Below the pieces are notes generated by a model. The model ran no database searches. It was given only the letters and a program-made list of their open reading frames with translations, and had not been told where the DNA came from. Source: Escherichia coli (lineage in GTDB: Bacteria > Pseudomonadota > Gammaproteobacteria > Enterobacterales > Enterobacteriaceae). Taken from it: 64,000 nt of DNA. The translations under genes and the position numbers were made by a program. Numbering within the stretch: the stretch's first letter is position 1; every line of letters begins with the position of its first letter. Of the stretch, positions 28,229 to 32,632 are shown one piece after another. The stretch lies in NCBI RefSeq assembly GCF_045037415.1, contig NZ_CP173438.1. One strand, given 5' to 3'.

Positions 28229-29542
28229 TTAACTTACTGATTTTAATAAGCCTCTGGTGTCACTTTGGTGACTATGGGGCATCATTGGGACATAATCTGT
28301 CAGCTTCTGATTCAGCATTGCGATCTGTTCTGCATTGCTGTCAGTCATCCATGCTCCGTATACATTGAATACCATCTGGGCACTTGCATGGCCCATCTGG
28401 CTGGCAATGAAGCTTGGGTTTGCTCCGGCAGATAATGACCAGCACGCATAAGTGTGTCGTGACTGGTATGCCTTTCGATGCCTGATCCCTGCACGCTTAA
28501 TGGCTGTTTCCCATGAGTCACCTACAGAATCGACTTTGTAGACAAAACCTACCTGTTCGCTTTTTCTAACCACTTGAGGGTTAAACACGAAAGTACATTC
28601 ATGGTTCACTGAACGTCCATATTCACGTAGTTGCACCTTGATGTTGTACTGCTTACCCAGTCTTGTCATTTCAGCCTGATTTTTCAGGACACTGATAGCG
28701 GGCTGGATAAGGTGCACAACCCTGTTTGTGCTTGCTTCAGTTTTCGGTAGAGTGAACTCACCAAGTTTCGTATAATTGCGCCTGATGGTAATTGTTCCTG
28801 CCTTCAGATCGATATCTTCCCAGGCCAGGGAAACCAGTTCACCGTGACGCATTCCTGTGTACACAGCCAATGACCACAGGTTTTTCGTCTGCTGATGTCG
28901 GCAAGCATCTATCAGGCGAATAAATTCGTCACGAGTTAGCGGATCTGGCTCTGCCCTGGCTCTTTTAAGAGGCTTAATTCCCTGGAAGGGATTTGCTTCT
29001 AAGTAACCGTGATCTGCAGCAAACTGAAACATTCCAGCGATTGTCGTCATGTAATAATTTACAGTAACGACGCTCCGTCCTTTTGCTGCTGCTTTGTTTT
29101 TCGTTGAATTCTGATACCCGGTAAGCAAATCTTTCCTGATATACAGCAATTCCTCTTTGGTTACCGATGACACCAGTCTACTGCCTCCAATTTTCGGAAC
29201 CATCGTTCTTGCAACGGATTCATAGCGATTGAATGCATTTGCAGAGATTTCCATTCGTTTCAGATCCAGCCACTTTTCTTCAAGTTCCTTCACCGTAATT
29301 TCTTTTTTACTTACCCCAAAAGCCTGAAGGTTGGGGGAGTCAGGGAACTGTGCAGCATAATCAAAGCTTCCTGTGCGGATGGCAAAACATACTGATGTCC
29401 GCAGTTCCCCGGCGATCTTCCTGTTCTTGGCAGTGTCAGGGACACCAAGATTTTCCCTGACACGTTTACCTTTAAAATTAAACCAGATGCGTAATGTGCC
29501 GCCGTGGTTTTCGACGCCTGTTGGATATTTGACTTTATCCAT
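28229..29542 (-). CDS. int: phage integrase (tyrosine recombinase)
   Basis: 437-aa ORF; C-terminal catalytic region with R...HxxR...Y arrangement (HTYACWS...GHASAQMVFNVYGAWM) typical of lambdoid integrases; abuts the attL junction. Confidence 0.9.
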   Translation of the reverse strand: MDKVKYPTGVENHGGTLRIWFNFKGKRVRENLGVPDTAKNRKIAGELRTSVCFAIRTGSFDYAAQFPDSPNLQAFGVSKKEITVKELEEKWLDLKRMEISANAFNRYESVARTMVPKIGGSRLVSSVTKEELLYIRKDLLTGYQNSTKNKAAAKGRSVVTVNYYMTTIAGMFQFAADHGYLEANPFQGIKPLKRARAEPDPLTRDEFIRLIDACRHQQTKNLWSLAVYTGMRHGELVSLAWEDIDLKAGTITIRRNYTKLGEFTLPKTEASTNRVVHLIQPAISVLKNQAEMTRLGKQYNIKVQLREYGRSVNHECTFVFNPQVVRKSEQVGFVYKVDSVGDSWETAIKRAGIRHRKAYQSRHTYACWSLSAGANPSFIASQMGHASAQMVFNVYGAWMTDSNAEQIAMLNQKLTDYVPMMPHSHQSDTRGLLKSVS

Positions 29543-29597: not shown

Positions 29598-29834
29598 TCA
29601 CCTGGGTTGTTTGTTTTTCATTGAGGCGACCCAGGCATCTATTGCTTTTCTGTTATACATACATTCACTGGAAGGCTTTGGATTACCGTCTGGTGATACG
29701 TGAATATACTCTCTTCCAACCATCCAGCATTCTTTCCGGGCCCGAAGAATTGTGCCTGGTTTGAGCCCGGTAATTGCGATAAGAACGCTTTCACAAACCC
29801 ATTCATTGGGAGCCAGTTGAATCACATTGCCCAT
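29598..29834 (-). CDS. excisionase-like DNA-binding protein
   Basis: 78-aa ORF immediately upstream of int on the same strand; weak resemblance to lambda Xis (GREY..H..S region); assignment positional. Confidence 0.55.
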   Translation of the reverse strand: MGNVIQLAPNEWVCESVLIAITGLKPGTILRARKECWMVGREYIHVSPDGNPKPSSECMYNRKAIDAWVASMKNKQPR

Positions 29835-29992: not shown

Positions 29993-30235
29993 TTACTTCC
30001 TTTTTATGGCTCGTAATTTTTTCAGGTGCTTTTCCTGCTCAGTGTCCGCGAGAATTTTGCGGTACTCCTGGTGGTCAATATGTTCGAACAGGCAGTTTAA
30101 CTCACCAATGCGTACCCGCCCGGATCGTCCGTCCATCCGTCGAAAGAACACTGAGTGCTCAGTGATGCGAGTAATCACCACGGGGTATCCGGCTCTGTCC
30201 GTGTATATCTGACCGCGTTGAATCAAAGCGAACAT
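29993..30235 (-). CDS. hypothetical phage protein
   Basis: ORF 29993..30289; start placed at MFALIQRGQ... with a GGGGA Shine-Dalgarno upstream. Confidence 0.35.
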   Translation of the reverse strand: MFALIQRGQIYTDRAGYPVVITRITEHSVFFRRMDGRSGRVRIGELNCLFEHIDHQEYRKILADTEQEKHLKKLRAIKRK

Positions 30236-30319
30236 GTGGTTATCCCCAGCGGCAAATCGAATACACCACCAGCGCCACCGCCATCGCAATTCCTACCGTT
30301 GTTAATGCTTCAGGCCAGG

Positions 30320-30664
30320 TCATCGTAAAATATCCTCCACGCTTATCAGTCCGTTCCGCTCCAGATAACTCATCGCCTTATCCGGTAATTTGCAGTCTGG
30401 CTTCGCTTTCCTCAGTTGCCAGGTTAACTGCTTTACCAGCATGGTTAACTCATCGACCAGACGCTGATATCCCACTGGTTTGTATTCATGCAATTTACCG
30501 GCTGGCTCTGCTACCAGCGATACCAGTGCGATTTCCAGAACAGCAATATCCATCTTATATGTGCGGATGATGTCATGGTCGATTGTGCCCGGTATGCACA
30601 GTCTCTGTGCTTCAATAGTCTCCTCTGCGTGAGCTATTAACTGCTCTCTGGTAAAAGTCGTCAT
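30320..30664 (-). CDS. hypothetical phage protein (carries an ...[17 protein letters not shown]... motif)
   Basis: 114-aa ORF; its ATG overlaps the stop of the upstream small ORF (ATGA). Confidence 0.45.
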
Positions 30665-30828
30665 GCCGTAGCCCCTTCTTGATATTTTTCAAACCAGAAC
30701 ACAACCGGCTCTGCTTCCAGCGATACCAGCGCAATCCGTGCCAGTTCCATTTGTTCACCACGGGTAAGCCCGTTTTCAAGCGGATTTTTAATGAACAATT
30801 CAATACGTTCTTTGGTAATAGTGGTCAT
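30661..30828 (-). CDS. small hypothetical protein, paralog of the N-terminus of the 31104..31514 product
   Basis: 55-aa ORF below the ORF-track size cutoff, [44 protein letters not shown]...; near-identical to [44 protein letters not shown]... Confidence 0.35.
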
Positions 30829-30838
30829 GTGTTACTCC

Positions 30839-31102
30839 TTAACCCGCAGTGCTTTCAACTGATGAGGGGAACAAAATCTTTTCATCAAACCCTGCATTCA
30901 TATCATGGACAGCAACACACCAATCCATTGACGAACGATTATCAAGAGCCTCCATGATTTCATCCATGCGGCGCAGGTCATACAGGTAAATGCTTTTATC
31001 GCCAATGGTGTAAAAACCAATTTTTTTCGGTGATGGGCAGCGATCAAGAACGTCCTGTAATTCGTTCAACCATGCCCGTTCTTTTTTTGTTAAAGTTGCC
31101 AT
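30839..31102 (-). CDS. hypothetical phage protein
   Basis: ORF 30839..31213; start placed at MATLTKKERAWLNELQ... behind a strong AAGGAGAG Shine-Dalgarno. Confidence 0.4.
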   Translation of the reverse strand: MATLTKKERAWLNELQDVLDRCPSPKKIGFYTIGDKSIYLYDLRRMDEIMEALDNRSSMDWCVAVHDMNAGFDEKILFPSSVESTAG

Positions 31103-31103
31103 A

Positions 31104-31514
31104 TCACTCTCCTTTCCCATGAAGCATAGCGGCGCGGCAGGCGTTCCAGCCTGTAGCGTATGCAGCCGCTTTGCTGCTGCCTTCAACTGGCGCATCCTGC
31201 CAATACATTTCATCCGGCACTACCGGCGCTGGCAAGGCAGCGTGATAGTAGAGTGGCATAGTTTTGTACAGTGGTTCGCCAGGACTTCCGTCAACCTGAT
31301 TCCATTCTTCAACCCAGGCATCAACAACCGCTTTGCTGGTTGATACATGTTCTTCTGAATCTACATTTTGTCCTGATATACAGAACATAACTGCCTCTGC
31401 TTCCAGCGATGCCAGAGCAATTCGTGCCAGTTCCATTTGTTCGCCACGAGTAAGTCCGTTATCAAGCGGATTTTTAATGAATAATTTGATACGTTCTTTG
31501 GTTATAGCGTTCAT
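31104..31514 (-). CDS. hypothetical phage protein (N-terminal paralog motif)
   Basis: ORF 31104..31556; start placed at MNAITKERIKLF... behind an AAGGAGAG Shine-Dalgarno. Confidence 0.45.
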   Translation of the reverse strand: MNAITKERIKLFIKNPLDNGLTRGEQMELARIALASLEAEAVMFCISGQNVDSEEHVSTSKAVVDAWVEEWNQVDGSPGEPLYKTMPLYYHAALPAPVVPDEMYWQDAPVEGSSKAAAYATGWNACRAAMLHGKGE

Positions 31515-31515
31515 C

Positions 31516-32331
31516 TCACTCTCCTTTGATGCGAATGCCAGTAGCGCGGATTGCATCGATGACTTCAGAAACTTTGTATGCCATTACCGTTTGGTAATCA
31601 TCGTGAAAATCTGTTCGATGAAGCATGCTGCTACGTTCCGGGAGCGATATTTCCCGAGCATCCAGTTCCTTAACGCGCTCCTCCAGTTCGTAGACCCTGC
31701 ATTGTTCTCTATCATCAATCAGATATAACCCAAGACATTCGCTTTCTACCCAACCGCCAAAATCATGATCGTAACGCTCACATGAAAACTCACCGTCACC
31801 GTCCTTTGTTGGAATGGTGTAACTATCTAATGGGCCACCATATGTCGGCACATTTCCCAATGTTGGATGCTCAATCCACATGAAAAATGCACGTCCGGTT
31901 ATTGGGCAAATATCTGGCCGCCATTGGTTACGAACAGCCTTGGTTTCGGATAATTCTTCAGCGTGTTGTTTTACTTCCTCAAGCTCAACTCTCAGCTTCC
32001 CAACCGTAAGAGCAATATCCTCGTTCTTCTGGTCGCGGCGTTTGATGTATTGCTGGTTTCTTTCCAGCTCATCCAGCAGCGCCAAGACGGTAGCCGGATT
32101 GGCTGCAGCGATGAATTCAGCATTGGCCTGCTGTTCCATTTGGAAATCTTCATCGAAACCGCTTTCAGGATGCGCTCCTTCAATTCTGCAAATGGGAATA
32201 TATCCAGCAGCCTCGCGATGAATTAGCGCATCATCACCATCAAATCGGCCCTCTCCATATTCGAGCGACCACTCACCACACGTTGCTTTCTCTGCCTTTT
32301 CACGCAGTGCCTGATAGTCAATCTTGCTCAC
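31516..32331 (-). CDS. Ead/Ea22-like early protein
   Basis: 271-aa ORF MSKIDYQALREKAEKATCGEW... resembling the recalled Ead/Ea22-like family common in lambdoid prophages; memory-based. Confidence 0.5.
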   Translation of the reverse strand: MSKIDYQALREKAEKATCGEWSLEYGEGRFDGDDALIHREAAGYIPICRIEGAHPESGFDEDFQMEQQANAEFIAAANPATVLALLDELERNQQYIKRRDQKNEDIALTVGKLRVELEEVKQHAEELSETKAVRNQWRPDICPITGRAFFMWIEHPTLGNVPTYGGPLDSYTIPTKDGDGEFSCERYDHDFGGWVESECLGLYLIDDREQCRVYELEERVKELDAREISLPERSSMLHRTDFHDDYQTVMAYKVSEVIDAIRATGIRIKGE

Positions 32332-32632
32332 TGGTTGCCTCCTTTGCCGGGATTTCTAACTTTTGAGTGGTTGTATCAAATTCAAACAACTTAACCACGT
32401 CATCAAACAGGACATAATCACCATCAGGATCTTCAGTCATATCTGCGCCACAATCCTGACCGCACGAGTCGCAACCATCCATATCAAGCTCGTATCGCTT
32501 CAGGTTTGCGATATTTGATAAATTCAGCGCCAGTACAGCCAGGTCATAAACCTCTTCGGCAGTGACATCGCTGTTCAGTCCCATTTCATGGCGATATATG
32601 ATTTTTTCTACTCGTTGTTTTGTGATCGTCAT
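32318..32632 (-). CDS. hypothetical phage protein
   Basis: ORF 32318..32656; start placed at MTITKQRVEKIIYRHEMG... Confidence 0.35.
   Translation of the reverse strand: MTITKQRVEKIIYRHEMGLNSDVTAEEVYDLAVLALNLSNIANLKRYELDMDGCDSCGQDCGADMTEDPDGDYVLFDDVVKLFEFDTTTQKLEIPAKEATSEQD

Follow-up and report, generated by a model that had tools for sequence, protein, structure and literature searches.

The leftward accessory region of a lambdoid prophage in Escherichia coli (a prophage that in strain THO-003 adjoins yecN-cmoA-cmoB) carries a run of small genes whose products resemble each other in their N-terminal parts, and raises the question of whether such likeness between neighbouring genes records a duplication within the phage or the arrival of related pieces from elsewhere. 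The first-pass annotation of this DNA (a 64,000-nt stretch of contig NZ_CP173438.1, hereafter the window) had read three open reading frames (genes A, B and D; Table 1) as a small paralogous family produced by intra-phage duplication and divergence of one module. All three frames are indeed present on the - strand, and belong to a set of four separate small genes (A, B, D and F) situated between immunity and xis-int. The left arm of the prophage is transcribed on the - strand, and its order (from the integrase end) is integrase, excisionase, a 48-aa open reading frame, a DUF4222 gene, genes A to F and a DUF4752 gene, with a LexA-like repressor farther right. This region is the counterpart of the P22 ea region and of the lambda exo-xis region. 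The stop codon of B overlaps the start codon of A (ATGA), the Shine-Dalgarno (SD) sequence AAGGAG lies upstream of B, and the E/D and D/C junctions share one 15-mer (AAGGAGAGTGANATG), which is a reusable 'KGE-stop-SD-ATG' gene boundary. The 2.5-kb block holding these genes is covered to at least 80% in 75 of 5426 complete E. coli genomes, and is 100% identical in the 20 matches listed.

Table 1. Genes, recombination joints and boundary motifs of the accessory region (positions are those of the window).
Feature	Position (nt)	Strand	Description
Integrase	28229-29542	-	
Excisionase	29598-29834	-	
DUF4222 gene	29993-30289	-	
Gene A	30320-30664	-	114 aa: longer diverged module allele (residues 1-54), flexible linker, ~55-aa helical body
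Gene B	30661-30828	-	55 aa: canonical module (residues 1-42) and 13-residue tail
Gene C	30839-31102	-	87 aa, phrog_1714; without module; between D and B
Gene D	31104-31514	-	136 aa from the ATG at 31514
Gene E	31516-32331	-	Ead/Ea22-like, PF13935 (E 2.2e-32); directly upstream of D; context
Gene F	32318-32632	-	104 aa: diverged module allele (MTITKQRVEKII..DLAVLAL) and Cys-rich body
23-nt joint CTGGTATCGCTGGAAGCAGAGCC	30707-30729	-	3' end of the B module; codes LVSLEAEP
23-nt joint CTGGTATCGCTGGTAGCAGAGCC	30504-30526	-	3' end of the A module; recombination partner of the B joint
23-nt joint CTGGCATCGCTGGAAGCAGAGGC	31393-31415	-	Same joint in D
203-bp segment missing in L086	30513-30715	-	End points ambiguous within the shared AGCAGAGCC
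Boundary motif AAGGAGAGTGAGATG	31512-31526	-	E/D junction: ..KGE stop, SD, ATG
Boundary motif AAGGAGAGTGATATG	31100-31114	-	D/C junction; 2 matches vs 0.01 expected

The N-termini of B and D had been described as nearly identical over some 44 residues, and both protein and DNA alignment bore this out: 37 of the 44 residues are the same (BLASTP E 2e-25), DNA identity reaches 88% over 126 nt, and the first 44 codons are separated by 8 synonymous and 7 non-synonymous codon differences; B and D differ at ~29% of synonymous sites. The likeness breaks off sharply at codon 44 on one side and immediately before the ATG on the other, and the flanks beyond are unrelated. Both proteins start with what we term the EaA-type N-terminal module (~42 residues from the initiator Met, beginning M[TSN][TA]; the profile, whose seed alignment included both, scores B at 99 bits and D at 88 bits). 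Annotated EaA N-termini match B at 84-98% identity, and identical or near-identical 55-aa B reading frames occur in many E. coli (P0002, P0003); the D allele of the module (MNAITKERIK..) recurs unchanged in P0180, P0159 and P0065.

The claim that a related segment is also found in A was borne out, but not by alignment alone. A and B share 19 of 54 residues (35%, two gaps, E 4e-6), and the match is confined to the ends of the module (MTTxT[KR]E.. and ..IAL[VA]SLxAEP), the middle being unalignable; on alignment alone A thus comes close to the outcome that the first-pass annotation had named as counting against a family, namely similarity restricted to one short stretch. Three independent lines counter this, and because of them we count A as a member carrying a homologous module: its matches to phrog_5117, phrog_60 and phrog_3323 fall on the profile positions that B and D also match; the only occurrences of a 23-nt block (CTGGYATCGCTGGWAGCAGAGSC) in the 64 kb are those in A, B and D (3 matches against 0 expected); and bodies and alleles are swapped in other genomes, where a canonical module can precede the A body and a DUF551 protein (P0312) begins with the module of A. 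Gene F, which the first-pass annotation did not mention, is a fourth diverged copy (40% identity to B over 35 aa, E 8e-4), and its body sits behind a canonical module in P0238. Although a profile built without them scored A and F only weakly (7.7 and 15.5 bits, respectively), both have the features of a diverged allele (an M[TA][TE][ILF]T[KR]E start, an [IK]AL[AV]SL[EAV]AE[PS] end, a helix-loop-helix between the two, and interchangeability with the canonical allele). A six-frame HMM scan of the window yielded exactly four copies (A, B, D and F), all on the - strand and within 2.3 kb; as the seed alignment held these same four, their matches arise by construction and only the lack of further copies is informative.

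The search for the motif in other prophages, which had been proposed as a check, revealed a module that is widespread well beyond this locus. By tblastn and protein searches we found it as the N-terminus of P22 EaA, of HK620 HkaE and of many proteins annotated as Eaa, 'DUF550-containing' or 'DUF551-containing', in phages and prophages of Escherichia, Salmonella, Shigella, Enterobacter and Yersinia. A profile search of 1.84 billion cluster representatives returned 1252 clusters (at 50% identity) that match the module, 344 of them at E<=1e-10, and in 148 of the best 150 clusters the match occupies residues 1-39 to 1-44 of proteins that are 53-457 aa long. Representatives chosen at 50% identity that begin with a near-identical 43-residue stretch must therefore differ elsewhere; among 168 proteins, the 40 aa following the module fall into 56 unrelated classes. 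Pfam domains assigned to 124 members comprised DUF551 (37 proteins), dATP-dGTP_PPHyd (10), Caudo_TAP (1) and Glyco_hydro_19 (1), with none in the rest. At the DNA level the canonical module is present in at least 1062 of the 5426 complete E. coli genomes. The module itself matched no Pfam, NCBIfam or PADLOC model, and the proteins that it leads are scattered over several PHROGs.

The architecture of D links the small genes to much longer proteins. D consists of the canonical module, a variable segment, PLYYHAALPAPVVPDE, a second variable segment and a terminal GWNACRAAMLHGKGE followed by the stop codon, and its residues 1-132 can be aligned with 24 diverse members (alignment A4). The pattern common to such N-regions is one of near-invariant islands (module, LYxAPPAPVVP and GWNACRAAMLQG) split by unalignable segments of varying length; D carries the full succession (module, variable segment, LYxAPPAPVVP, variable segment, GWNACRAAMLQG), and B and A are without this region. 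D is, in other words, an EaA-type 'N-region' that lacks a C-terminal domain, and P0180 represents D extended into a DUF551 domain. Its end (..AAMLHGKGE and stop) is shared by several other family members, and D-sized proteins ending in ..AAMLQGKGE and stop recur with several different variable segments (alignment A4). The C-terminal ~50-55 residues of A likewise constitute the C-terminal module of longer EaA-type proteins, and phrog_660 looks like a D body followed by an A body behind one module. In the PGAP annotation D is split into two partial pseudogenes, and the label 'DUF551 domain-containing protein' that it gives to a D fragment comes from likeness to the N-terminus of such proteins and not from the domain. 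Pfam searches of A, B, D and F gave no match to DUF551 (PF04448) at E<=1, none to the MazG-like dATP/dGTP pyrophosphohydrolase (PF04447, formerly DUF550) and none to Ead/Ea22-like (PF13935), the last being matched by gene E only.

These relations also bear on a reading that takes B and D for decaying pieces of once longer EaA/DUF551 genes and the whole family for deletion debris. The pseudogene calls on D, the existence of P0180 as D plus a DUF551 domain, the composition of B (merely the module and 13 residues) and the occurrence of deletions between modules are all in keeping with it. We nonetheless regard it as unlikely, given that none of the open reading frames is broken (SD sequences being in place and stop and start codons coupled), that the 2.5-kb block is unchanged in the 20 genomes listed of the 75 that cover it, that proteins of the size of D keep recurring with the same end and different variable segments, and that the module in these copies displays no relaxed constraint. 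The B tail, moreover, stays in frame behind three module alleles (B, P0108 and P0117), although in-frame recombination would give the same result anyway.

Constraint on the module was assessed in 87 canonical copies from 80 IMG/VR loci (32 distinct DNA versions), a sample obtained with the 55-aa B as query and biased towards its relatives. The variable sites at codon positions 1, 2 and 3 number 8, 3 and 22, respectively, with a mean pN/pS of 0.096; synonymous changes occur throughout the module (the 23-nt joint at its 3' end included), and many codons do not vary at any of their three positions. Purifying selection on the module is strong and acts at the protein level, and the view that A, B and D are coding genes sharing a homologous small module is upheld by these values. 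The invariant codons of the sample, together with the use of the 23-nt joint in recombination (see below) and the second conserved DNA joint at the gene boundaries, could also be expected if the segment were kept for a nucleic-acid role only (as a recombination linker, a translation-initiation region or an RNA element) and its peptide were functionless. This is decidedly unlikely, because the excess of third-position variation and the low pN/pS are the signature of protein selection, synonymous changes fall inside the joint itself, alleles with quite different DNA keep the helix-loop-helix prediction, and tests at the RNA level were null (no Rfam match; folding no better than that of shuffled sequences, z +0.24). 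An RNA element in particular was rejected on the last two results.

The manner in which the copies came together can be read from their surroundings in other genomes. At least seven module alleles, B's own among them, precede an A body that is at least 90% conserved (alignment A5). These alleles all start with M[TA][TE][ILF]TKE.. and end with ..AL[AV]SL[EA]AE[PS], their middles differing in sequence and length. The most direct case is locus L086 (E. coli GCA_021528075.1), which holds the same prophage in the order F, E, D, C, a 101-aa gene, DUF4222, xis and int, and whose DNA departs from the window only by an exact 203-bp deletion (Table 1). The deletion ends inside the 23-nt repeats of B and A, and leaves an in-frame gene that joins the B module to the A body (P0277, 101 aa). 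The conserved 3' end of the module is thus a working recombination joint. Also seen are a protein in which B and A are fused in frame (P0247) and proteins that carry two alleles in tandem (P0121 and P0122). The flanks of the module are likewise shuffled, with 13 upstream and 16 downstream classes occurring in 25 combinations and one upstream class being joined to 8 different downstream classes. Furthermore, the B+A pair behaves as a travelling unit in many loci without D or F, and in other loci the pair, D and F turn up separately from each other.

The origin of the likeness between B and D follows from comparison with copies elsewhere. The nearest module DNA in other genomes, fused to other genes, is 98-99% identical to that of B and 95% identical to that of D, and because each is closer to these copies than to the other (88%) we conclude that the two did not arise by local duplication. 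The 'intra-phage duplication and divergence' of the first-pass annotation does not survive this result, the flanks being unalignable and reassorted and the module being pan-lambdoid. Most probably the four copies were brought together through recombination between phages, and each came in with an allele of its own. Local tandem duplication followed by divergence outside the N-terminus, to which the presence of four copies in one operon (same strand, within 2.3 kb) and the uncommonness of two canonical copies per phage (94 places in 92 records) would lend themselves, is largely refuted and in our judgement highly improbable, for there is no alignable sequence beyond the module on either side, B and D differ at ~29% of their synonymous sites, closer relatives of each are fused to other bodies, the B+A pair, D and F lead independent lives, and the bodies of A, B and F are also paired with other alleles.

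Structure prediction, another of the checks that had been suggested, gave a two-helix hairpin for the module in both D and A (AF2). In the model of D (25-sequence alignment; mean pLDDT 70, pTM 0.38) the canonical module is predicted with moderate confidence as helices at residues 6-14 and 23-38 (pLDDT 60-77), and a C-terminal helix (residues 113-132, pLDDT >90) covers the WNACRAAML island. In that of A (20-sequence alignment; mean pLDDT 71, pTM 0.41) the hairpin helices span residues 6-23 and 30-51 (pLDDT 79-88), the linker (residues 56-61) falls below 50, and the body is a three-helix one. The module is accordingly predicted to be an antiparallel two-helix hairpin ending in ..SLEAEP, after which a flexible linker would follow, and the pTM values of 0.38-0.41 indicate that in these models the hairpin would have no fixed packing on the body. 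PDB sequence and profile searches with the module proteins produced no match; Foldseek searches with the D model against BFVD and with the A model against the PDB returned nothing at E<=0.001, the best local matches being generic 45-residue antiparallel alpha-hairpins.

From the predicted isolated amphipathic hairpin and the architecture of the proteins we infer that the module may serve in docking or self-association. The hairpin would act at the protein level as a common handle, tethered by the linker to variable effector bodies, and could do so by forming a four-helix bundle with a second hairpin or by binding a single conserved partner. The product of B would then be a handle without cargo, which may be a leftover of joint-mediated exchange or a small competitor of the other module proteins. 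The conserved ends of the module (chiefly the 23-nt block that encodes L(A/V)SLEAEP) also function as in-frame homologous recombination joints, by which alleles and bodies are exchanged or deleted. Among the phage genes accompanying the module none co-occurs consistently as an encoded partner: a C-like gene, ending 13 nt ahead of the canonical module, is found in 57 of 82 copies of the sample (which is biased), and in P22 the unrelated EaI takes the slot in which a C-like gene precedes the module. PADLOC models for anti-phage defence gave no match. The account as a whole (old polymorphic N-terminal alleles united by joint-mediated exchange, a helical module under selection and a role as a handle) is in our view likely to be correct. 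A stronger version we consider rather unlikely. In it the module, LYAAPPAPVVP and GWNACRAAMLQG would provide a combinatorial cassette system with its fixed scaffold and its in-frame joints, and temperate enterobacterial phages would keep reassorting short variable segments and effector domains behind a shared docking hairpin; the tandem F, D, B and A would be a local reservoir, comparable to the orphan modules of polymorphic toxin loci, and the diversity itself would be selected (e.g. through an arms race with targets in the host or in rival phages) and not a passive by-product of mosaicism. A strict-anchor four-gamete test of the var1 x var2 cassettes recovered 23 combinations of 17 x 17 classes and no complete quartet, and is no more than suggestive.

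Several known proteins help to place the module genes. P22 EaA (gp27, NP_059588), whose first 44 residues are 84% identical to B, is likewise encoded in the ea region upstream of xis-int and has the ..PLYAAPP.. island seen in D; it is a protein of 317 aa with a MazG-like PF04447 domain and a C-terminal DUF551, both of which A, B, D and F are without. YfdT of the K-12 prophage CPS-53 (101 aa) starts with a module allele (MTTFTNKELI..AYEIALVSLEVEP) that is 41% identical to the N-terminus of A, and is 58% identical over 90 aa (module slot included) to P0233, a protein with a canonical module. YfdT-type alleles head the A body in P0294 and P0300, whereas the body of YfdT itself is unlike that of any of the four genes. 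Functional data on a relative exist for YfdT alone: multicopy yfdQ and yfdR plus yfdS or yfdT inhibits replication initiation, and DnaA is bound by YfdR and not by YfdT (PMC4776307); nothing links this effect to the module. The possibility that the redundancy of YfdS and YfdT (PMC4776307) reflects a shared module was rejected, since YfdS is without one.

A parallel in principle is offered by the Ea22 proteins of lambda and Stx phages, in which a shared N-terminal part (a short segment and a coiled coil) is joined to unrelated portable C-terminal domains, DUF551 included (PMC10834534). The mosaic Ea22 proteins occupy the same genome region and follow the same principle as the module genes, and the Ead/Ea22-like gene E stands directly upstream of D; their N-terminal region (PF13935), however, belongs to a sequence family different from the module of A, B, D and F. 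A placement of the module inside Ea22-like proteins, as hinted by phrog_60, was dropped after none of the open reading frames in 84 loci was found to hold both. The mosaicism of this genome region and of Ea22 proteins has already been published (PMC10834534, PMC2629481), and our literature search, which found this work on Ea22, returned no description of this particular module.

The arrangement may further be likened, in logic only, to systems that combine a constant anchor with variable cargo. In the CdiA/Rhs polymorphic toxins (with VENN or PxxxxDPxGL demarcation) and in tail fibres with N-terminal anchors, recombination at a motif swaps the cargo and tandem orphans supply the material. In such an analogy ..SLEAEP would take the place of the short motif that closes the conserved N-terminal part and behind which the sequences are unrelated. 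Unlike CdiA, Rhs and tail fibres, the module proteins are cytoplasmic early-gene products with neither sequence or fold kinship to those systems nor a toxin/immunity pair, a secretion signal or a role in the virion.

Taken together, the four genes represent real but ordinary lambdoid mosaicism, and not a duplication special to this phage, and they illustrate that likeness between neighbouring phage genes need not imply that one was copied from the other in place. The recombinant with the 203-bp deletion shows in a concrete case, at the level of sequence, how an in-gene mosaic joint is used. Moreover, a very common N-terminal module, hitherto uncurated and without a Pfam or NCBIfam model, is now defined; its lack of curation has led to misleading labels ('DUF551-containing, partial', 'Eaa', 'Ea22') and to pseudogene calls such as that of D by PGAP, and a curated model of the module would clean up protein annotation in about a fifth of complete E. 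coli genomes.

The gene D reading frame (136 codons) is intact in the window, and RefSeq/PGAP splits it into two partial pseudogenes that overlap each other, one named 'DUF551 domain-containing protein' and the other 'hypothetical protein', each recorded as 'missing C-terminus'; we consider that these pseudogene calls are probably an artefact of mosaic similarity. Both borders of D carry one and the same 15-mer, AAGGAGAGTGANATG (2 matches vs 0.01 expected), which encodes '..KGE', a stop codon, an embedded Shine-Dalgarno sequence and the ATG of the next gene, and which looks like a reusable gene-boundary joint.

Coordinates of the features discussed
Feature	Record	Position	Remark
Gene C	window	30839-31102	phrog_1714
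Gene D	window	31104-31514	L001 6923-7315
Gene F	window	32318-32632	
15-mer, E|D junction	window	31512-31526	- strand
15-mer, D|C junction	window	31100-31114	- strand
Segment deleted in L086	window	30513-30715	203 bp
B-module::A-body gene	L086	3001-3306	101 aa
yfdT, E. coli K-12	L085	9874-10179	CPS-53

The sister prophage L086 (E. coli GCA_021528075.1) differs from that of the window solely by an exact deletion running between the 23-nt repeats of B and A, the product of which is a gene joining the N-terminal module of B to the body of A (the part that follows the module). Among the related proteins, P0247 is a natural in-frame B-A fusion (a single protein of 167 aa), while P0121 and P0122 each bear two different module alleles in tandem. 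Separately, an ISEc52 (IS3-family) element interrupts the otherwise identical 2.5-kb block in one strain (H26, NZ_CP115324.1).

Of the 82 copies of the canonical (B/D-type) module that were sampled, 57 have the end of a C-like gene 13 nt upstream, regardless of the sequence that comes after the module. This adjacency could reflect linkage by descent within what is a biased sample, or a functional pairing. The body of F, which contains a Cys-rich motif (DMDGCDSCGQDCGADM) and gives a weak match to zf-FCS (E 0.1), occurs behind the canonical module in P0238; F as annotated starts inside the DUF4752 gene, whose 3' end it overlaps by 47 nt.

Module-led genes were also found beyond lambdoid early-left operons: in P7-like and SSU5-like plasmid prophages (phage records H14/H15, P7; H61, SJ46; H102, SSU5) and in the Uetakevirus vB_EcoP_PAS61 (L083), where the gene (annotated as 'Ea22 protein') sits between the replication genes and the terminase. 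One further module-led protein (P0063, on a contig of 586 nt) bears the label Leptospira interrogans, which probably denotes contamination by enterobacterial DNA. In E. coli K-12, an allele of the module opens YfdT (MTTFTNKELI..AYEIALVSLEVEP), the remainder of which matches the body of the related protein P0233. The adjoining YfdS, which is devoid of the module, is a functional alternative to YfdT (PMC4776307).
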